Position numbers and translations under genes: made by a program. From the IMG/VR virus record IMGVR_UViG_3300022666_000111: 64,000 nucleotides of DNA. The stretch is one strand, 5' to 3'. The notes beneath the pieces are model-generated. The model saw only the letters and a program-made list of their open reading frames with translations. It was not told the origin of the DNA and did no database searches. Source of the DNA: a virus (taxonomy: Duplodnaviria > Caudoviricetes). Numbering within the stretch: the stretch's first letter is position 1; the number at the start of each line of letters is the position of its first letter. Shown here piece by piece: positions 4,960-48,049 of this stretch.

Positions 4960-5428
4960 GCAGTTCTCCTGCCCCTTTCACGGTAAAGACTCAAAGCCCT
5001 CGGCCCGGCTATACCCCGCTGGGCCTACGGGGCCGTCTCACGCTTGGTGCTTCGTTTGCCAAGAGCGCTGGGACGCCATAGCCCTCTGGCGCAAGTTCAA
5101 CGACCCTACGGCCCCCTTCACCCGGTCTCTTGCCGAGATCGAGCGGACTTACGGGATCCACGCGCCCGAAATGCCGAACCTCGGCGACATTCGTGCATCA
5201 ATCCGCGAGCAAGAGTTCGAGGAGCTTCAAAGCCTCTTGGATGTGGCTGAACGACGGCTCATGGGCGCCCGTGACGACTTCGACATGAAAGCCTACCTCA
5301 CCATCGGATCCGTCTTGGACAAGCTCCATACCCGGATCGAGAAGGGGACCATCACCGCCGAGGTTACCCGCGCCACCATCCGGAAGATTCTCGATAAGAT
5401 CGGAGAGCGATGCCGCGCCGCGTCTTAG
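4793..5428 (+). CDS. CHC2 zinc-finger protein (DnaG-like Zn-binding domain, no TOPRIM)
   Basis: CPFH.KD.KPS...WCFVC; GGTGTAG at 4777-4783, 9 nt upstream. Confidence 0.75.
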   Translation: MPRDFRREAEQESSQRKLQQAWIQERVAAIRATVSAYDVLRRFGVKLQHAGETRIEQFSCPFHGKDSKPSARLYPAGPTGPSHAWCFVCQERWDAIALWRKFNDPTAPFTRSLAEIERTYGIHAPEMPNLGDIRASIREQEFEELQSLLDVAERRLMGARDDFDMKAYLTIGSVLDKLHTRIEKGTITAEVTRATIRKILDKIGERCRAAS

Positions 5429-5835
5429 TGAACATCCGGGAGATGGGGCAGATCGAATTGCTCCTTGTTCGGATGGAGGGGGGCTGTTGGGAGCCGGAGT
5501 GGGAGGCTCTGCGCGAGACACCCATAGCGGGGCTGCTTCCGGTCGTTACCCGACAAGATATAGAGCACGCCCTCAAGGGATACACTCGCCCGCTATACCG
5601 TGGGCTGGGTTTGCCTCCTGACGGGGCGTTACGCAAGCTGCCCAAGGACGCCAAGGAGTGCCGTGAAAGGCGCTCCTGTCGCCTGTGGCGGCCCGAGGAG
5701 TGTCACCCCGTGGCGAAAGCCATGCCCTGGTGTTTTCAACCGGACGCCTTGCCCTTGAAGGCAGCCGAGGTGATTCAGTTATGGCGAGAGAAGACCTACA
5801 TCGTCATAACCCTTGAGGAGGATCAGAATGCCTGA
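5410..5835 (+). CDS. Hypothetical Cys-rich protein
   Basis: ORF coupled to neighbours in the replication block. Confidence 0.55.
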   Translation: MPRRVLVNIREMGQIELLLVRMEGGCWEPEWEALRETPIAGLLPVVTRQDIEHALKGYTRPLYRGLGLPPDGALRKLPKDAKECRERRSCRLWRPEECHPVAKAMPWCFQPDALPLKAAEVIQLWREKTYIVITLEEDQNA

Positions 5836-8647
5836 TGTACTAGATTGGGAAGGTAGCTTCGACGTCGAAGCCTTGCTGGATGACAGCGTCCCCGTGGCGT
5901 CAAATCCCCCACCCCCTGCGGCTGATCCACCCCCTATGGTCAGCCGTCAGATGGCCCCCGCTACATCATCGGATTCCGATGACGACGCAGCATACTTCCT
6001 CTCCATAATGCAAACGGAGAGGGAGGTCCCCAATCCCGAGAAGCCTTGGATGAAGCATCACAAGTTCGTCCTGGTCACCTCGGTTGATCAGATCAACCAG
6101 ATCGTGGATAGCGCCATCGCGGCTGGCAAGTGCGCCCTCGACCTTGAAACCGAGGGGTTGGACAACCGCATCAACTACGACGCGAATGGCGCCCCTCAGA
6201 CAGTCCATCAGATCGTAGGCTATTGCTTGTCCTATGACGGGCACACGGGTTACTACGTCCCCGTGGGGCACCGTGTCATCGAGGGCGAGGATAACCCCAA
6301 CCTCCCTCGCGACGAGGTTAACGCTGCGATCCGCCGCCTTTGCATCGCCGCGCAGCCGGTCATGGACCCAAGTGATCCTGACCCCCTTGGAGGTAAGACA
6401 TGGCTCGAGCCCCCCAAGGTCATCATCGGGTTCTGGCACGCCAAGTTCGACCAGGAGTTCCTCTACCCCGTGACAGGGATCGACTTCTGGCACCCCGACT
6501 CCTTCCACGACGGCTACCTTGCGTCATTCGTCCTCTACACGAATGACGTCCTCGGCCTCAAAGAAAAGGCGGCGGAAAAGCTCCGGGATCCTGACGGTAA
6601 CCCTTACGAGATGATCAAGCTCCAAGAGCTATTCATCCGGGGGCGTGACATCGAATTCGCAGAGCTTGACCCCCGTGAGGAGGGTGTGGTCAAGTACGCT
6701 TGTTCTGACGGCATCTGCACCTACAAGCTATGCTTCGAGAGCGACATCCCCACCCGCGTCGCGGACAAGAAGTTCACCGGGATCTATCGGCTCGAGAAGC
6801 AGGTCTCCCAGGTCATCCGCGTTATGGAGCGCAACCGCGTCAAGATAGACAAGGCCGAGGTCCAGCGGGTTATGCTGGAGGCCCAGGCCGAACGCGACGA
6901 GTATGAGCGGAAGATCCAAGCCTTGGCTGAGAGTAAGGGGTTCCACAACTTCAACCCAGGCTCGACCAAGCAGCTCTCCGATTTCCTCTTCGGTGAAGAC
7001 GGGCTCAACCTCACCCCCAAGCCCGAGAAGAATGAGAAGAGCGGCAACTACAAGACGGACGCCAAGACGCTTGAGGGGCTCATCGAAGACCTCCCGGAGG
7101 ATGAGGCCAAGGACAACGTCCTCGTGTGGATCGTCAAGCACCGGCAGATCGACAAGATCCTCGGGACGTATTTGACCAACATGGTCAACAACACGGACGA
7201 GCTTGACCAGCTCCGGTTCCAATTCAACCAGACCGGGGCTGCTACGGGGCGATTCTCAGCCCCTGCGGGCGACCCGGCCCACGGCTACGGCGGCGTACCA
7301 CCCCAGGGCATCCCAAGCCGATCGGACCCCAAGAGGCCCAAGTGCGCCAACAGTCTCCGGCGAACGTTCGTCGCTCGGGCGGGCTACACGCTGGCCAAGT
7401 GTGACTACGCCGGTCAAGAGCTACGCGTCGTTACGAACCTCTCTGGTGAGCCCGTTTGGATGAAGGAGTTCATCGAGGGTGACGGTGACCTCCACAGCAT
7501 CACGGCTCGAGCCTTCTTCGGCAAGGAGGATGTCACAAGCGAGGAGCGTGGCGCCGGTAAGCGCGCCAACTTCGCCCTGGTCTACGGAGGCGGCCCGGCA
7601 GCCATCATGCGCGCCACCGGCTGCAACAAGATCGAAGGCAAGCGCCGCAAGCAAGCCTTCGATAAGGCCGTTCCGACCTTCGCCAAGTGGGTTGAGAACC
7701 AGCACAAGAGCGTCAAGAAGGAGCTGGGGGTTTGCACGGCCTTCGGACGGTGGCTCGCTATCCCTGACGCCAACAGCCCCGACCACCAAATCCAGGCCGC
7801 TTGCGAACGATACTCGACGAACTACCCGATCCAGGGCTCAGGCTCCGACATCATGAAGATCTCGCTCGTGAAGATGCACAAGGAATTCACGAAGCGTGGT
7901 TGGCTCAAGGTAGGCGGGGACGATTCGGTTCGGATGCTTTTGACGGTTCACGACGAGGTGGTCTTCGAGATTCGGCATGACCTTGTGCCGATCGTCATCC
8001 CGGTCATTGTTGAGATCATGGAGTCACCGACCTTCATGGCGCGGCCTGCTTGGAAGGTCCCGCTGGTTGTAGAGCCGCTTCTCGGGCTTGCCTGGGACGG
8101 CAAGTATGACTGGGGCAAGATGCGGCATGGGCGCAAGGCGAAGCCCAATGAGCAGCCGAAAGAGAAGGAGTACGCGGTTGAGGATCGGATCTACCAGTGT
8201 GTTCCACCATGGCTCACTGACATTCTTGCTTTCAAGGGAGGTCATCTTGTGAAGCCTGGCACCGATGAGCTGCCCGAAGCCCCGAGCCCTGCGGTTGTAG
8301 AGGCCATCGCCAATGCGGTAGCGTCCGTCCCGGTCAAACCCGCAGAGGTCAAACCTACGTCGGCCCCGCCCCCGGCTGTGCCGCCTCCGCCCGCGCCCGT
8401 AGCAACACAGGATGGGGGGCTTGCGGAGTTTTGCATCGAGACCCTGACGCGCAACACGGCCAGGATCGTGAGCGTTGTTTGTATGGAGGCTCGGGATGTC
8501 GACGCGGGCAAGGTTCTGCGCCTGGTGGACATCCATGGCAATCTGCTGGTGGACCCGCGCCTCCAAATCCGCGTAGACCCTGACCATTTCCTCCGGGAGA
8601 TGCGAAAGTACAACCTTGGAGTTGGCAGAATCCTCGGGAAGAGCTAA
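5828..8647 (+). CDS. polA: Family A DNA polymerase (3'-5' exonuclease + polymerase, no 5' nuclease)
   Basis: ExoI DLETEG, ExoII HAKFD, ExoIII YACSD; ATGRFS; motif A DYAGQELR, motif B RGAGKRANFALVYG, motif C TVHDEV. Confidence 0.95.
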   Translation: MPDVLDWEGSFDVEALLDDSVPVASNPPPPAADPPPMVSRQMAPATSSDSDDDAAYFLSIMQTEREVPNPEKPWMKHHKFVLVTSVDQINQIVDSAIAAGKCALDLETEGLDNRINYDANGAPQTVHQIVGYCLSYDGHTGYYVPVGHRVIEGEDNPNLPRDEVNAAIRRLCIAAQPVMDPSDPDPLGGKTWLEPPKVIIGFWHAKFDQEFLYPVTGIDFWHPDSFHDGYLASFVLYTNDVLGLKEKAAEKLRDPDGNPYEMIKLQELFIRGRDIEFAELDPREEGVVKYACSDGICTYKLCFESDIPTRVADKKFTGIYRLEKQVSQVIRVMERNRVKIDKAEVQRVMLEAQAERDEYERKIQALAESKGFHNFNPGSTKQLSDFLFGEDGLNLTPKPEKNEKSGNYKTDAKTLEGLIEDLPEDEAKDNVLVWIVKHRQIDKILGTYLTNMVNNTDELDQLRFQFNQTGAATGRFSAPAGDPAHGYGGVPPQGIPSRSDPKRPKCANSLRRTFVARAGYTLAKCDYAGQELRVVTNLSGEPVWMKEFIEGDGDLHSITARAFFGKEDVTSEERGAGKRANFALVYGGGPAAIMRATGCNKIEGKRRKQAFDKAVPTFAKWVENQHKSVKKELGVCTAFGRWLAIPDANSPDHQIQAACERYSTNYPIQGSGSDIMKISLVKMHKEFTKRGWLKVGGDDSVRMLLTVHDEVVFEIRHDLVPIVIPVIVEIMESPTFMARPAWKVPLVVEPLLGLAWDGKYDWGKMRHGRKAKPNEQPKEKEYAVEDRIYQCVPPWLTDILAFKGGHLVKPGTDELPEAPSPAVVEAIANAVASVPVKPAEVKPTSAPPPAVPPPPAPVATQDGGLAEFCIETLTRNTARIVSVVCMEARDVDAGKVLRLVDIHGNLLVDPRLQIRVDPDHFLREMRKYNLGVGRILGKS

Positions 8648-33142: not shown

Positions 33143-33481
33143 ATGGCAACCTTCAGGAAAGATAACCGAACAGGCGAGTGGAAAGTTTTTGGAACGGCTG
33201 ACGAGGTGGCCCCCGGGTCCGTCAGTGTTCGCAAATCGGATGGTACGTCGAAGACGGTTCAAGTGGATCGCGTGTCCAAGCCCTTCGACGTCAATGGGGT
33301 CCTGCACGTCTACGGCTACATTGCCGCCAGCACAGCGGCGTCAACGAGCACGGGGAGCTGCTGCGCGGAGTGCGGCGCACCAAGCTCACGGATGACCATG
33401 TGTTCGGATTCGAATGGCATCCAGGGACCCTGCTGCCCACGATGCGCAAGGATGTCACGCTTCGAACGCTCCTTCGCATAA
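33143..33481 (+). CDS. Small protein with C-terminal Zn finger
   Basis: CAECG...CPRC; ATG 8 nt after GGCATA. Confidence 0.6.
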   Translation: MATFRKDNRTGEWKVFGTADEVAPGSVSVRKSDGTSKTVQVDRVSKPFDVNGVLHVYGYIAASTAASTSTGSCCAECGAPSSRMTMCSDSNGIQGPCCPRCARMSRFERSFA

Positions 33482-33507
33482 TCCTCCTGTGACCGGGCGA
33501 TGATGTT

Positions 33508-34134
33508 ATGCGCGACCTCATCGCCCGTGTTGCTGCCCGCTATGAATGTCAGGACCTCCTTCGGCAAATCCAAGGGGGTAAGCCTGCGATCCTCGTCCTG
33601 GTCACATCCTACCCTGGGATGGACATCCGCGTTTATCCCACAGAGGACCTCCCGCCCGAAAGGGTCGCGGCGCTTGACACCTACCTCCAGGGGATCTTCA
33701 CGGCCAAGAAGATCGAAGACTACGGCCCATGTAAGGACCCCGGGGGCGCCCCGCTCTCCTACATGGTTCAGTCAGCTTGGGAGCACATCAAAGACGCCCT
33801 CTTGGGAGTCTCTTGGGAGGGGGCACCTTTCAAGCTCCTGCTCAACCCACAGCCTTCGCTCTATCCGGATGCCGAAAGGCATCACTTGGTCATCGACTCC
33901 TACGGGGAAACCTTCGAGGCTATCTTGAGGGTTCTCAAAGCCATCAAGGCGCTAGGCGACGCGGGACATTCAACCTCTGTCGACATTGATGGGAAGGCCG
34001 TTGCTGGTGTTGACGGTGACGGCGCCGACCGCATTGAGGAGATTCTCGTGGACGGTAAATCTCTAGACAGGATCGCTTCCTGTGTGGTGGCCAAGTACAA
34101 GGCCAAGAAGAAGGTCAAGACCAAAACATCTTGA
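33508..34134 (+). CDS. Hypothetical protein with LIARVAARY tag (N-terminal part of an ancestral TopIB fusion)
   Basis: C-terminus RIASCVVAKYKAKKKVKTK duplicates the TopIB N-terminus. Confidence 0.65.
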   Translation: MRDLIARVAARYECQDLLRQIQGGKPAILVLVTSYPGMDIRVYPTEDLPPERVAALDTYLQGIFTAKKIEDYGPCKDPGGAPLSYMVQSAWEHIKDALLGVSWEGAPFKLLLNPQPSLYPDAERHHLVIDSYGETFEAILRVLKAIKALGDAGHSTSVDIDGKAVAGVDGDGADRIEEILVDGKSLDRIASCVVAKYKAKKKVKTKTS

Positions 34135-34159
34135 CCGTGTGTAACGGTAGCGGTATGTT
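34131..34159 (+). promoter_or_regulatory. Sigma70-type promoter of the HNH gene
   Basis: TTGACC-N17-TATGTT, ATG 6 nt later. Confidence 0.55.
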
Positions 34160-34165
34160 GTCAGT

Positions 34166-35029
34166 ATGTCTTGCACTGCTGAAGGTTGCCAGGAAGTCGC
34201 GCGTATTAGGGGCTTGTGTCTGAGGCATTACCACTTGGCGCGACGGTCAGGTACCCTGGACGTCAAACGCCGGGGTCGGGCTTGCCAGGTAGCAGGATGC
34301 CCTGAACCGCACTATGCTAAGGGGTACTGCTCGGGCCACTATGACGCTTGGAAGCGGTGGGGGGATCCCTTAAAACGGGTTCGCGGACACAGAGGTGACG
34401 GTCATGTTGACCGTTTTGGCTACAGGTGGGTTTCCATTGATGGGAGGCTTGTTTTGGAGCACCGTGTCATTATGGAGGCCACCCTCGGTAGACCGCTTCA
34501 ACCAGGAGAAAGGGTCACACACCTGAATGGGGACAGATCTGATAACCGGATCGAAAACCTGAGCATCGCAACCAAAGGGTACATTTCCAAAAAGGGTCAC
34601 CGGGTACTCAGTGTTAAGGGTAAGCAAGTCCTTGAGCATCGCCTGGTTATGGAACGGCATCTTGGTAGAAGCCTTGGTGCAAATGAGCAGGTGCTGCACA
34701 GGAACGGAGATCCCCTAGATAACCGTTTGGAGAATCTCCTGATCCGCAACACCACTCCCGGAAGCTCGGATGGCTACATCTATGTGTATGTGGCAGGGCG
34801 GGGTAATGTGGCGGAGCACCGCTGGCTTATGGAGGGGATTCTAGGACGACCTTTGACATCCGATGAGAGCGTCCACCACCGTAATGGTGACCGTCAAGAT
34901 AACAGAGCCGAAAACTTGGAGTTGTGGTCAAGGTACCAGCCCTCCGGACAACGTGTGGCGGATAAGCTAAAGTGGGCGCGGGAGATAATCTCTCGTTATG
35001 GACACCTTGAGCATGCTGCGTCTAGCTGA
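34166..35029 (+). mobile_element. Free-standing HNH homing endonuclease (three tandem HNH units)
   Basis: Three EHR..ME..LGR.L...E.VxHxNGD..DNR.ENL repeats; two N-terminal CxxxGC...GxCxxHY motifs. Confidence 0.9.
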
Positions 35030-35870
35030 ACGGGTTGTGGCCCGCTACCAGTCAAAACACCGCGTCAAAACGAAAGACGGGGACGAAATGGTGGTCTACG
35101 AGTATTCGGAGCGCCAGATCGCCAACCGAAACCGTAAGAAGGCGGAACGCCTCGAGAAGCTCAAGAAGAACATCGGCAACCTCCGCAAACGCGTCCAGCA
35201 GGACCTCAAGAGCAGTGACCCTGACACCATGCTATCCGCCCTGGCGGTAGCCCTCATCGACCACACGTATGAACGTGTAGGGAACGAGGAGTCTGCTGAT
35301 GATGGGCACTTCGGGGTCACCGGGTGGACCCGCAAGCACATTAGCTTCGGTCGTGGGAACGCGACGGTGAAGTACGTTGGCAAGTCCGGCGTGAAGCACA
35401 CCAAGAAGATCTCCGACGCCAGCATTCTCAAGGCCCTCAAGGATGTCTACGAGGCCCGGGAGGACGAGGACGAGAGCATCTTCACGCATGACTTGGGGAA
35501 GGTTGATGCCCGCAAGGTCAACGCCTACCTCAAGCAATTTGACGTGACAGCCAAGGACCTCCGAGGCTTCCACGCCAATCGAGAAATGCAAGAGCGCCTC
35601 AAGGAGATTCGCTCCAAGGGCAAGGCGCTATCCGAAGACAAGAAGGCCCGGGAGAAGCAGCTCAAGGCGGAATTCCTCAAAGCGCTTGAGGCAACGGCTG
35701 AGGCTGTCGGGCATGAGCCTGCGACCCTACGGTCGCAGTATTTGGTTCCGGGGCTCGAGGACGAGTACGTTAACAAGGGTACCGTAATGCCGTCCTTCAA
35801 AAAAGACGCTTCCAGTCTTGCAATACGCGTCATTCAACGCTATCTTGGGGCATGCTCAAGAAATGGGTGA
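35013..35870 (+). CDS. DNA topoisomerase IB (catalytic domain)
   Basis: Pentad in YERVGNE (R), VGKSG (K), AKDLRGFHAN (R), VGH (H), LRSQY (Y). Confidence 0.85.
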   Translation: MLRLAERVVARYQSKHRVKTKDGDEMVVYEYSERQIANRNRKKAERLEKLKKNIGNLRKRVQQDLKSSDPDTMLSALAVALIDHTYERVGNEESADDGHFGVTGWTRKHISFGRGNATVKYVGKSGVKHTKKISDASILKALKDVYEAREDEDESIFTHDLGKVDARKVNAYLKQFDVTAKDLRGFHANREMQERLKEIRSKGKALSEDKKAREKQLKAEFLKALEATAEAVGHEPATLRSQYLVPGLEDEYVNKGTVMPSFKKDASSLAIRVIQRYLGACSRNG

Positions 35871-36709
35871 TCTATTCCCTTGAAGATCCGCGCGGTGGTG
35901 GTGTACGATACGTAGGCATCACACACCAAGAACCCCAAAAGAGACTTCGAGGGCACTTGTCCAAAGCCCGTCGAGGTGCCCGTTCCCACCTGTTCAACTG
36001 GATCAGGAAGCTTCAAGCAGATGGCGTTGAGCCTATCTTGCGTGTACTTGAATCGGGCTCTGGGGAAGGGTGGGGTGCTGCCGAAACTCAATGGATTGCG
36101 TGGCATCGTACACTAGGCTGCGACCTCACAAACGCCACAGATGGTGGGGAGGGATGCCCAGGTCACAAGGTATCCCTGGAGGCTCGTCAGAAGATGCGTG
36201 AGGCTCGACTGGGGAAACCCTTGAGCCCTGAGCACAAGGCGAAGGTGGCTGCGGGTAATCGCGGCAAGAAAATGCGTCCCGAGTCCATTGCGTTGGGTGT
36301 TGAAAAGAGGTGTGGGTTCAAACATACCGCCGAAGCACGAGCGAAGATATCTGCTGCCAGAAAAGGGAAGGCGGGGTGGATCCCCACCCCTGATGTGTTA
36401 GCTAAACGTGCGCGAGCAATACAAGCGGCTATGTCGAACAAACGCGCGGCTGGGGGAACGTTTAGCCCTGATGCAGCAACTCGCGCCAAGATCAGCCAGG
36501 CCAACAAGGGTCTGAAGCGGAGCCCTGAAACCCGCGCCAGGATGTCAGCGGCGCGTAAGGCGGTTTGTGCTAAAGAACGAGAACGGACGGGGAAGCAATT
36601 GGGAGAGAGAGCCTCCCACAAGACATGCCCTATATGTGGGCTTCACATGCACAGACAAAGCAAGACTTGCAGAAGTTGTTTTGAAAAGGCTAAGACACAC
36701 TGTTGTTAG
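35852..36709 (+). mobile_element. GIY-YIG homing endonuclease with NUMOD3-like repeats
   Basis: VIYSL.DPR...RYVGIT, E..WI, LTN.TDGGEG, H..E.RAKIS repeats. Confidence 0.9.
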
Positions 36710-36738
36710 ATCGGGTCCCAGGGCTTGAGGAGGACTTC

Positions 36739-37152
36739 ATGGCGGACGGTAAGGTGGACGGCAATTTCGTCAAGTCAGCATCCTTGGAGCAGCGCGTGGT
36801 ACAGCGCTACCTAGCGGATCGACGGGCAGCGGCCAAGTTTGCCGTCGTCGATACCTACGCGGCGCTTGTCAAGAAGTGTCATGATGCGGAGTACACTGGG
36901 GTCCAAAAGATCCTGGCCCGGGTCAATCTGATCGCGAAGACCATTGGCTACACTCTTGACATGCAGCAATCCTACCTCGAGGCGCGGACCGGGAGCGAGA
37001 CGACCATTGAAGGTCGGTTGCGCTTCAAGGAGATCCCCGGGGCGAGGAATATCGTCCTGGGAGAATCCGCTATTCACACGGCTATGCGTGACCTCTTTGA
37101 CCTGTGGTCCTACCCACGTATGAACCAGGATGGGTTCGACATTAGTGTCTAA
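36739..37152 (+). CDS. Orphaned original C-terminal part of the TopIB fusion (LEQRVVQRYL tag)
   Basis: Preceded in frame by VPGLEEDF, matching TopIB VPGLEDEY; SD GAGGAGG before ATG 36739. Confidence 0.55.
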   Translation: MADGKVDGNFVKSASLEQRVVQRYLADRRAAAKFAVVDTYAALVKKCHDAEYTGVQKILARVNLIAKTIGYTLDMQQSYLEARTGSETTIEGRLRFKEIPGARNIVLGESAIHTAMRDLFDLWSYPRMNQDGFDISV

Positions 37153-37203
37153 AGCGCCGCTCATACATTGATCGACACCCTCCAGGGGTGTAGTATGGGC
37201 ATC

Positions 37204-38052
37204 ATGCAGATTGCAGAACTACACTTAGCACCAAGCAACGTTGAGGAGACGCTTCACCGTATCCTTGACGACCTGGACCTTCCTCGCGTAGAGGCGCGGA
37301 CGGGGCTTCGGCTTTCCGAGCTGGTCCCACGCCTTCGTGAGTACCGCCACAATCAAGATCAATTCCACCAGGGCGAAACGATCCTTGAGCACATCCAGAT
37401 GGTTCTCGAGGATCTCGAGCGCATCACGGTTGGGTTGGGCTACCCAGACAGGCAGCTCCTCAACGCCACGGCGCTCTTCCACGACCTGGGGAAGGCTTAC
37501 ACGCGGACCGTTGAGGACGGCCGGTTCAAGTATCACCGGCACGCTGAGGTCAGCGGGCTCGTCTACGACGCTCTCATGGCTCAAGAAACTAGCCAGGAGT
37601 TCTTCCTGATCCGAGACCTTGTCCGGCTACACGACGTCTTCTTGGATCTTGCGCGGGCGCGACGGGAGGCCACTGGGGGATCGCTGCGTTACCTCAACCG
37701 GCTCATGACGGAGCCTCTCGTTCAGCAAGGGCGGCTCTACTTGCTCCTACACTTCGTTCAAGCGGATACCGCGAGGGCGCAGCAGGATAACGCCTCCGCC
37801 CGGAGCCTCCAGCGTGTCTTGAGCGACATCGAATCCTACCAGATTCGTCAAGCTGAAGAGGTCGAGCTACGACGCCGGATGCAAGAACGGGCTGTGACAC
37901 ATGCCGATGCCATCCGTGACCTTGTCCAAGAGGTCCCAGAAGCCGCAGCGGTCCTCCCTAACATCTCCGCTATGAACGAGATTCTGGGCCGCGTTCGTCG
38001 CTACGACCTCATTCGGGCTACGCAAGCTATCCTGCAAGGGAGCCCCACATGA
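37204..38052 (+). CDS. HD-domain phosphohydrolase
   Basis: H...ILEH, LFHDLGK, HAEVS, LHD, AD; ATTGATC-N13-GGTGTAG upstream (37167-37193). Confidence 0.8.
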   Translation: MQIAELHLAPSNVEETLHRILDDLDLPRVEARTGLRLSELVPRLREYRHNQDQFHQGETILEHIQMVLEDLERITVGLGYPDRQLLNATALFHDLGKAYTRTVEDGRFKYHRHAEVSGLVYDALMAQETSQEFFLIRDLVRLHDVFLDLARARREATGGSLRYLNRLMTEPLVQQGRLYLLLHFVQADTARAQQDNASARSLQRVLSDIESYQIRQAEEVELRRRMQERAVTHADAIRDLVQEVPEAAAVLPNISAMNEILGRVRRYDLIRATQAILQGSPT

Positions 38053-47551: not shown

Positions 47552-48049
47552 ATGCCACAGAAGATTTGCTTTAAGTGTAAGCTGCCCAAAGACCTTGAGA
47601 GTGAGTTCTTCAGGTGCCGGTCACGTGGGGATGGTCGTGGGGCGTGGTGCAAAGACTGTACCGTGAAGTACAATAAGGCCCGGCGAAAAGCCGATCCAGA
47701 GGGGACGTCAGAGCATTCCCGGTGGTACTTCCTCGGCTGGAAATACGGGATGACGCGGGAGCAGTACGAGCGGATGTTCGAAGCACAGGGCGGATGTTGT
47801 GCTATTTGCCGGATTCCCGACGCCCAGGCGAATCGCCCAGGCAAACAGCGCAACAGTCAGAGTAGTCGCGGTCTTTGTGTTGACCATGATCACCAAACCG
47901 GCGTTGTTCGCGGACTCTTGTGTAACACCTGCAATCGAGCCATTGGATATCTCAAGGACAGCCCGGAGGTTTTACTGCGTGCTATGTTATATCTTCAAGC
48001 AGCTCGCGCTGGATCTTGCGACGCTCTGACGGACGGAGCTGGTGTTTAA
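47552..48049 (+). CDS. Endonuclease VII-family protein (likely homing type)
   Basis: KYGMT..QY..M..AQGGCCAIC, CVDHDH.TG.VRGLLC..CN. Confidence 0.85.
   Translation: MPQKICFKCKLPKDLESEFFRCRSRGDGRGAWCKDCTVKYNKARRKADPEGTSEHSRWYFLGWKYGMTREQYERMFEAQGGCCAICRIPDAQANRPGKQRNSQSSRGLCVDHDHQTGVVRGLLCNTCNRAIGYLKDSPEVLLRAMLYLQAARAGSCDALTDGAGV

Follow-up and report, generated by a model that had tools for sequence, protein, structure and literature searches.

Two free-standing endonuclease cassettes at the two ends of a type IB topoisomerase module in a huge phage, each with a probable replacement end

The locus at positions 33508–37152 of a 64,000-nucleotide (nt) stretch of DNA from a huge uncultured phage (the whole stretch is called the window here) encodes a type IB topoisomerase (TopIB) with an endonuclease gene at each of its ends. 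The preferred interpretation, with a probability of about 0.85, is that two free-standing endonuclease cassettes split a multi-module gene and that each of them brought a replacement TopIB end. A first-pass annotation of the window had proposed a splicing-independent intragenic invasion in which each element carries a diverged copy of the target end, and this is supported by the insert boundaries relative to an uninterrupted relative (contig L022), by sequence identities, by the G+C content at third codon positions (GC3) and by two further contigs, L042 and L023. On the plus strand, the order of genes is open reading frame (ORF) 1, the HNH gene, TopIB, the GIY-YIG gene, ORF5 and a gene for an HD-domain protein that ends at 38052. 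Several of these features carry a short RV..RY peptide, called the tag, which appears to mark module borders. All five ORFs and every coordinate quoted in the annotation proved correct when recomputed from the sequence. The features are the following, with lengths in amino acids (aa):

33508–34134, plus strand: ORF1, 208 aa.
33508–34068, plus strand: ORF1 module body, opening with a module-border tag (RVAARY type); 76% identity to residues 1–211 of protein P0151.
34069–34125, plus strand: stub A, the putative resident TopIB N-terminus (tag and first strand of the N-terminal hairpin), now the ORF1 tail.
34126–35075, plus strand: HNH element, in which the closing two codons and stop of ORF1 are followed by a 31-nt spacer, the HNH gene and copy B.
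34166–35029, plus strand: HNH gene, with three HNH_3 repeats.
34998–35075, plus strand: copy B, the putative replacement TopIB start, which begins within the 3' end of the HNH gene.
34998–35870, plus strand: TopIB gene in use, 290 aa; its core, from 35076 to about 35768, is taken as resident.
35769–36714, plus strand: GIY-YIG element, with the putative replacement TopIB tail and its tag (copy C) and the GIY-YIG/NUMOD3 gene.
35852–36709, plus strand: GIY-YIG gene, the start of which overlaps the final six TopIB codons.
36703–37152, plus strand: ORF5 as its longest reading frame, with TAA at 37150–37152.
36715–36813, plus strand: stub D, the putative resident TopIB tail and tag, now the ORF5 head.
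36814–37152, plus strand: ORF5 module body, in frame with stub D.
37195–38052, plus strand: HD-domain module gene (PF01966, E 5e-6).

The boundaries of the inserts were obtained from the closest relative, the 5-kb contig L022, which is syntenic with the window. It carries the ORF1–TopIB gene (protein P0151, 463 aa), the HD gene, two small genes and an RNase HII gene on the other strand, with no endonuclease gene. By blastn, window positions 33458–34124 match L022 5–686 without a break, 35064–35768 match 676–1380, and 36715–36779 match 1357–1421. Since the three pieces are collinear, the window contains two inserts relative to L022, at about 34126–35075 and 35769–36714, and on L022 the flanks of these inserts overlap by 11 nt and 24 nt, respectively.

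The search with ORF1 among longer proteins returned five proteins, all of which also contain TopIB, and in three of them the ORF1 module is fused directly to it (P0151, with 76% identity to ORF1, P0152 and P0153). Thus, the uninterrupted alleles that the annotation had suggested looking for do exist, with ORF1–TopIB as one gene in L022/P0151, P0152 and P0153. The HNH gene is absent from L022, P0152 and P0153, and the GIY-YIG gene is absent from L022, L018, L019 and L020. The outcome named beforehand as contrary to the proposal, that is, endonuclease-free relatives with three separate genes and the same duplications, did not occur, and the duplication is absent from these endonuclease-free relatives.

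Both ends of TopIB are present twice in the window. The ORF1 tail and the TopIB start are identical at 13 of 26 positions (BLASTP E 1e-4), and the TopIB tail and the ORF5 head at 18 of 35 (E 5e-7), so that both duplications claimed in the annotation exceed chance. At the DNA level, the copies within each pair share almost nothing, and copies C and D agree at only 23% of third positions. In protein sequence, the members of each pair are no closer to one another than to arbitrary members of the family (11 identities in 24, compared with family means of around 10–11 and best values of 15–16). The ranking of family members by their likeness to each short copy was too noisy to name a donor lineage.

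The comparison with L022 distinguished the two copies at each end. Stub D matches the L022 tail at 18 of 22 aa and 80% of nucleotides, and copy C at 11 of 22 aa and 53%; over codons 9–22, the values are 79% aa and 81% nt for stub D versus 36% and 38% for copy C. At the other end, stub A matches at 10 of 17 aa and 71% nt, and copy B at 8 of 17 aa and 57% nt. The GC3 values separate in the same direction, being about 0.7–0.79 for resident genes, 0.785 for the TopIB core and 0.76 for each of stubs A and D, with 0.57 for the HNH gene, 0.54 for the GIY-YIG gene and 0.57 for copy C as a whole. Codons 264–290 of copy C have a GC3 of 0.44 (P = 0.0007 against a resident value of 0.75), while copy B is intermediate at 0.65, a difference that is not significant. 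In copy C, the duplicated stretch begins at 35745 and the foreign DNA at about 35769. These data support the assignment of stubs A and D as the resident ends and of copies B and C as parts of the endonuclease elements, and, at the level of sequence comparison, they show both the insert boundaries and which copy is resident.

A different origin of the repeated ends would be a tandem duplication of the TopIB ends in place, the endonuclease genes having settled there later without bringing the ends. In its favor, both tail copies have an unusual Gln in the tag (RV.QRYL) that is rare in the family, and the beginning of copy C looks resident. Nevertheless, such a history is very improbable, given that each copy resembles unrelated family members as much as it does its partner, that C and D agree so little at third positions, and that the GC3 of copy C is like that of the endonuclease genes. 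In addition, a similar tail accompanies the GIY-YIG gene in L023, and copy B lies within the block that is identical in L042.

The movement of the cassettes was evaluated on contigs from relatives. L042, a 1179-nt contig from another sample, encodes an HNH protein identical to that of the window. It is 100% identical to window 34085–35080 (996 nt), spanning the final 41 nt of ORF1, the spacer, the HNH gene and copy B, while past 35080 it has 29 mismatches in 183 nt of the TopIB core (about 15%), mostly at third positions. The switch from identical to diverged sequence lies at most 5 bases from the cassette edge deduced independently from L022. As judged from this allele pair, the HNH cassette was recently shared between diverged alleles, and its identity in two strains with about 15% divergence of the host gene lets the border of the mobile unit be read with a precision of a few bases.

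The same contig bears on the explanation that HNH gene, TopIB and GIY-YIG gene constitute one mobile cassette, with a TopIB core that is foreign as well. Two endonuclease genes do bracket the module, co-conversion from both sides could replace the interior, and the strong conservation of TopIB limits what identity by itself can tell. However, the GC3 of the core (0.785) is set against 0.54–0.57 for the endonuclease genes, and the core is 83% identical in amino acids to L022, at least the level of its neighbors (ORF1 76%, RNase HII 66% and HD 58%). Moreover, the HNH cassette is identical in L042 and the adjoining core is about 15% different, which indicates that the core did not travel with it. 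A single cassette is therefore hardly credible, and two separate cassettes around a resident core are preferred.

For the GIY-YIG cassette, L023 contains a GIY-YIG gene with 75% identity, located after a TopIB that ends in a similar tail and tag, and is collinear with the window at 72% nt identity over 35508–36683. The ORF after this gene has a stranded TopIB tail as its head, followed by the module to which TopIB is fused in the uninterrupted protein P0016 (47% identity, E 4e-129, with the alignment beginning inside the TopIB tail). Thus, at the junction of TopIB with the downstream module, the comparison with a contiguous gene is by analogy, L023 versus P0016. In L024, a GIY-YIG gene with 59% identity directly follows a stand-alone TopIB of 286 aa that ends in the tag, and the gene after it begins with the tag without a stub, which resembles a donor arrangement. 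The GIY-YIG start codon is found a few codons past the tag in the window as well as in L023 and L024 (three of three).

Several observations weigh against the two-cassette interpretation. The first eight codons of copy C are resident-like in both identity and GC3, which leaves an uncertainty of about 24 nt in the position of the left edge of the GIY-YIG cassette. No close relative of the HNH gene was found beside TopIB elsewhere in IMG/VR or in metagenome contigs. A contig from SRR35946889 encodes an identical GIY-YIG protein, a 290-aa TopIB and a 137-aa ORF5, with about 530 nt between the upstream 212-aa gene and TopIB versus about 2.7 kb in the window; this strain seems to be without the SGNH-like gene, the 123-aa gene, ORF1 and the HNH gene. 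At the downstream side, the L022 TopIB stops a few codons past the tail without an ORF5 module, no relative shows a fusion of TopIB with the ORF5 body, and this body has no known homologue. The three-domain ancestor proposed in the annotation was thus confirmed in part: the ORF1–TopIB fusion is present in relatives, and the third domain is suggested by the in-frame stub alone, since the ORF5 body has no relatives.

The 290-aa product has the features of a complete type IB topoisomerase of the poxvirus/bacterial type, and its activity is predicted. It matches the Pfam family PF01028 (Topoisom_I) with an E of 1e-28 and a score of 100.7 bits (cut-off 23.7). Residue 248, encoded at 35739, is the catalytic Tyr and lies opposite the tyrosine of variola TopIB (2h7f); R93, K129, R189, H239 and Y248 align with the poxvirus residues, and all five are invariant in 62 relatives. 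The AlphaFold2 model has a predicted local distance difference test (pLDDT) score of 89.8, with 2h7f as the best Foldseek match (E 5e-13 over 281 columns) and Deinococcus TopIB as a further match. In this model, the HNH junction falls between residues 26 and 27, in the turn of the N-terminal hairpin, and the two tags form terminal helices with lower confidence. The GIY-YIG junction immediately follows the catalytic Tyr, within the block that is best conserved across the family. Conserved blocks are typical targets of homing endonucleases.

At the inserts, the non-coding sequence amounts to 31 nt (34135–34165) beside the HNH gene and 29 nt (36710–36738) beside the GIY-YIG gene. An Rfam search up to E 1 gave no intron, and a Pfam search gave no intein or Hint domain. 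Not all three host pieces share a reading frame, with stops and frame changes at every junction, and the HNH ORF has its own frame and start. On these grounds, the view that there is no room for a ribozyme, no intein and no dependence on splicing was upheld, and, to the extent that sequence can tell, splicing is excluded.

Another explanation is that the pieces are joined again or stay associated once expressed, through RNA or protein splicing, ribosome bypass or docking of the tag helices as in Aeh1 NrdA, where the tails created by mobE are essential for assembly of the split protein (PMC3045599). Docking would agree with the similar helix that each junction leaves on both neighbors. On the other hand, no ribozyme was found and there is no room for one, the Pfam search gave no intein domain and the pieces do not all share one frame, and the TopIB product has the complete fold and catalytic residues by itself. 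Besides, the modules occur in relatives alone, reordered and with other partners, and nothing suggests that they need one another. Rejoining is consequently given very little weight, and, with TopIB complete and the modules occurring independently in relatives, this locus probably has no need of reassembly.

The tag and the modules were studied in the family to which this TopIB belongs, which comprises 580 cluster representatives at E < 1e-30; the counts given are from the best 150. More than 30 residues precede the TopIB module in 113 of these 150, and more than 80 residues follow the catalytic Tyr in 124, with lengths of up to 3381 aa. In the IMG/VR contigs L003–L005, the module is found within ORFs of 2000–3100 aa, and in relatives the same modules are also found alone, in other orders and with other partners. 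The HD gene of the window is 33% identical to residues 294–577 of the TopIB–HD fusion P0007, and in relatives the HD module is either fused to TopIB or directly downstream of it. In L001 and L004, the gene with the TopIB module lies just downstream of a portal-like gene, a proximity that is the sole hint of virion packaging of these proteins.

A strict RVAARY-type peptide occurs at five sites in the six frames of the window, all five in this locus (33526–36793), which is accounted for by three module borders, two of them duplicated. A looser RV..RY form is found near the C-termini of an ADP-ribosyltransferase-like ORF (24338) and a 2H phosphoesterase (57342), where RV..RY(L) lies 6–8 residues from the end. 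In TopIB and the 2H phosphoesterase, the tag is followed by Leu-Gly, a few residues and the stop. Relatives carry the RV..RY tag at nearly every module border of their 2000–3100-aa proteins, and it is read as a general module-border tag of this phage group, with a loading signal, a cleavage site or a docking helix as candidate roles.

From these results, the following origin is proposed. The ancestor would have been one protein with the ORF1 module, TopIB and the ORF5 module, followed by the HD module, of the tag-punctuated multi-enzyme type. The TopIB module would have been invaded at both of its conserved ends, by the HNH cassette at one and the GIY-YIG cassette at the other. The former would close ORF1 and supply a new TopIB start codon, tag helix and first hairpin strand, and the latter would supply a new TopIB tail, tag and stop just before its own start codon, with the displaced resident ends remaining as the ORF1 tail and the ORF5 head. 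The outcome would be three separately translated proteins, each with a border tag, and a whole TopIB. As donors, endonuclease genes located between genes, beside a stand-alone TopIB as in L024, are envisaged. If a break in the fused allele were repaired through homologous invasion at its TopIB side, and at its far side by joining that was illegitimate or relied on very short homology, the end would become duplicated. Free-standing phage endonucleases are described as cutting away from their own gene and dragging flanking DNA along (PMC2988022), and the proposed repair route fits this behavior. In this scheme, we infer the endonuclease activity, the cleavage sites, the resistance of the carried copies and the independence of the three products.

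If so, a selfish endonuclease can enter a coding sequence harmlessly without an intron or intein by carrying a diverged copy of the end that it displaces, and here two unrelated endonuclease families would have done so at the two ends of one enzyme module. This would link homing endonucleases to the fusion and fission of multi-enzyme proteins in huge phages. A more tentative extension, which is considered possible but rather doubtful, is that endonuclease cassettes with tagged gene ends generally drive the splitting of cargo-polyprotein genes in huge phages; an intergenic cassette of one phage would cut a fused allele of another and give separately translated modules. If true, each module would keep an RV..RY tag and might still be loaded or processed like the parent, and this would help to explain why TopIB, HD, 2H phosphoesterase and ADP-ribosyltransferase modules are fused, split or scattered among related phages.

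The translation start of ORF5 appears to have been affected as well. A GAGGAG Shine–Dalgarno sequence (36727–36732) is located within stub D, 6 nt before an ATG at 36739. This ATG is more likely to be the start than position 36703, and the first codons of stub D probably now serve as its ribosome-binding site; the protein atlas includes the corresponding 137-aa form. ORF5 and the HD gene share a frame with a single TAA between them (37150–37152), and read-through would give an ORF5–HD fusion. The annotation had also assigned a promoter to the HNH gene. The motif TTGACC-N17-TATGTT is indeed present at 34131–34159, but one such site was found versus 2.3 expected by chance, and the promoter is unsupported beyond chance. 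Just before the catalytic Tyr codon and the GIY-YIG junction, the codons at 35719–35738 contain a perfect 8-bp hairpin with a T-rich stretch, which cannot form from the same codons of L022. It may be due to chance, with 7 terminator-like sites in place of 4.4 expected.

Regarding the individual proteins, the HNH gene product matches HNH_3 (Pfam, E 9e-32) and phrog_20891 (PHROGs, E 1e-45). Its three tandem HNH_3 repeats are preceded by two Cys/His-rich N-terminal units, and the usual His-His of the HNH motif is kept in the third repeat only; the first two repeats may function in DNA binding only. The GIY-YIG protein matches PF01541 (31.2 bits against a cut-off of 22.6), NUMOD3 (E 1e-13) and phrog_314, annotated as 'homing endonuclease' (E 3e-18), and an identical protein is encoded on a 341-kb contig. 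Pfam and PHROG searches gave no match for ORF1 or ORF5, nor did tblastn of both against phage records. The AlphaFold2 model of the ORF1 module is poor (pLDDT 55); ORF1 has no match in IMG/VR, and its matches in the protein atlas all have template modeling (TM) scores below 0.5. Two blocks, GHST..DID and DGDG.DRI, are invariant in all six members aligned, and ORF1 is regarded as an uncharacterized conserved module that travels with TopIB. For the ORF5 body, no relative was found among the longer proteins, the 150 TopIB representatives, IMG/VR or the protein atlas. A near-DNA search of the window against phage records gave no match, and exact look-ups of its TopIB, ORF1 and the 137-aa ORF5 found nothing on record.

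Other mobile elements were observed in the surroundings. In L024 (1–3504), the protein of more than 1118 aa encoded upstream of TopIB contains an intein with a LAGLIDADG endonuclease, so that relatives have selfish elements of several kinds clustered near this locus. In L001 (LR745208.1, a related huge phage of 485 kb), a GIY-YIG gene at 6229–7089 lies between two genes (5028–7787) that share a 53-aa N-terminal region with 58% identity (E 4e-19), by all appearances a second endonuclease-linked duplicated gene end, in another gene. The window itself contains a 165-aa nuclease-like ORF at 47552–48049.

Genes split by endonuclease genes without splicing are already known, namely Aeh1 nrdA/mobE (PMC3045599) and T4 gene 39/mobA/gene 60 (PMC2988022). 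In Aeh1 (Crona et al. 2010, PMC3045599; reviewed in PMC2988022), a free-standing HNH gene likewise lies inside a conserved enzyme gene; an intron or intein is absent, the two pieces persist as ORFs, and new termini arose with the insertion. However, the new tails of Aeh1 are unique sequences and the halves must reassemble (PMC3045599), whereas in the window the new ends are diverged homologues of the enzyme's own ends, the enzyme is intact and the neighboring modules are cut off. In T4, an HNH-type gene also splits a phage topoisomerase gene into cistrons, although this is a type II enzyme split through its body, and its pieces must assemble; duplicated ends are not mentioned for it in the available part of PMC2988022, which has no word starting with 'duplicat'. 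In the window, by contrast, a type IB module is trimmed at each end, by two different endonuclease families.

An endonuclease-flanked C-terminal duplication was reportedly found by Paquin et al. in 1994 for Allomyces atp6. In fungal mitochondria, partial C-terminal duplications of atp6 and cob are located beside free-standing GIY-YIG or LAGLIDADG genes, with the endonuclease gene between the working end and the displaced second copy, as in the window (PMC6279837). These cases differ in being organellar, usually at the 3' end of one gene only, and in that the displaced copy is a dead fragment, whereas in the window both ends are concerned, the stubs are within neighboring ORFs that are predicted to be expressed, and there is population evidence of cassette movement. 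In ICP1 phages (PMC10448857), a sharp switch from identical to diverged sequence at the edge of an endonuclease gene resembles that between L042 and the window, but it is intergenic, while the boundary in the window is inside coding sequence, at the edge of the carried gene start.

The parent protein resembles the polyvalent proteins (Iyer et al. 2017, PMC5512222), long proteins of many unrelated enzyme modules, whose genes lie close to virion genes; packaging and cleavage into units have been suggested for them. In that work, TopIB is not treated as a module ('topoisomerase' occurs once, in the reference list), linkers and homing endonucleases are not mentioned, and the RV..RY border tag is not described. 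Altogether, the locus is a documented variant of a known endonuclease trick rather than a new kind of element. What is new here is that both ends of one module are replaced by two endonuclease families, that the stubs are retained in neighboring ORFs of what was a tag-punctuated multi-enzyme protein, and that an allele pair fixes the cassette edge.

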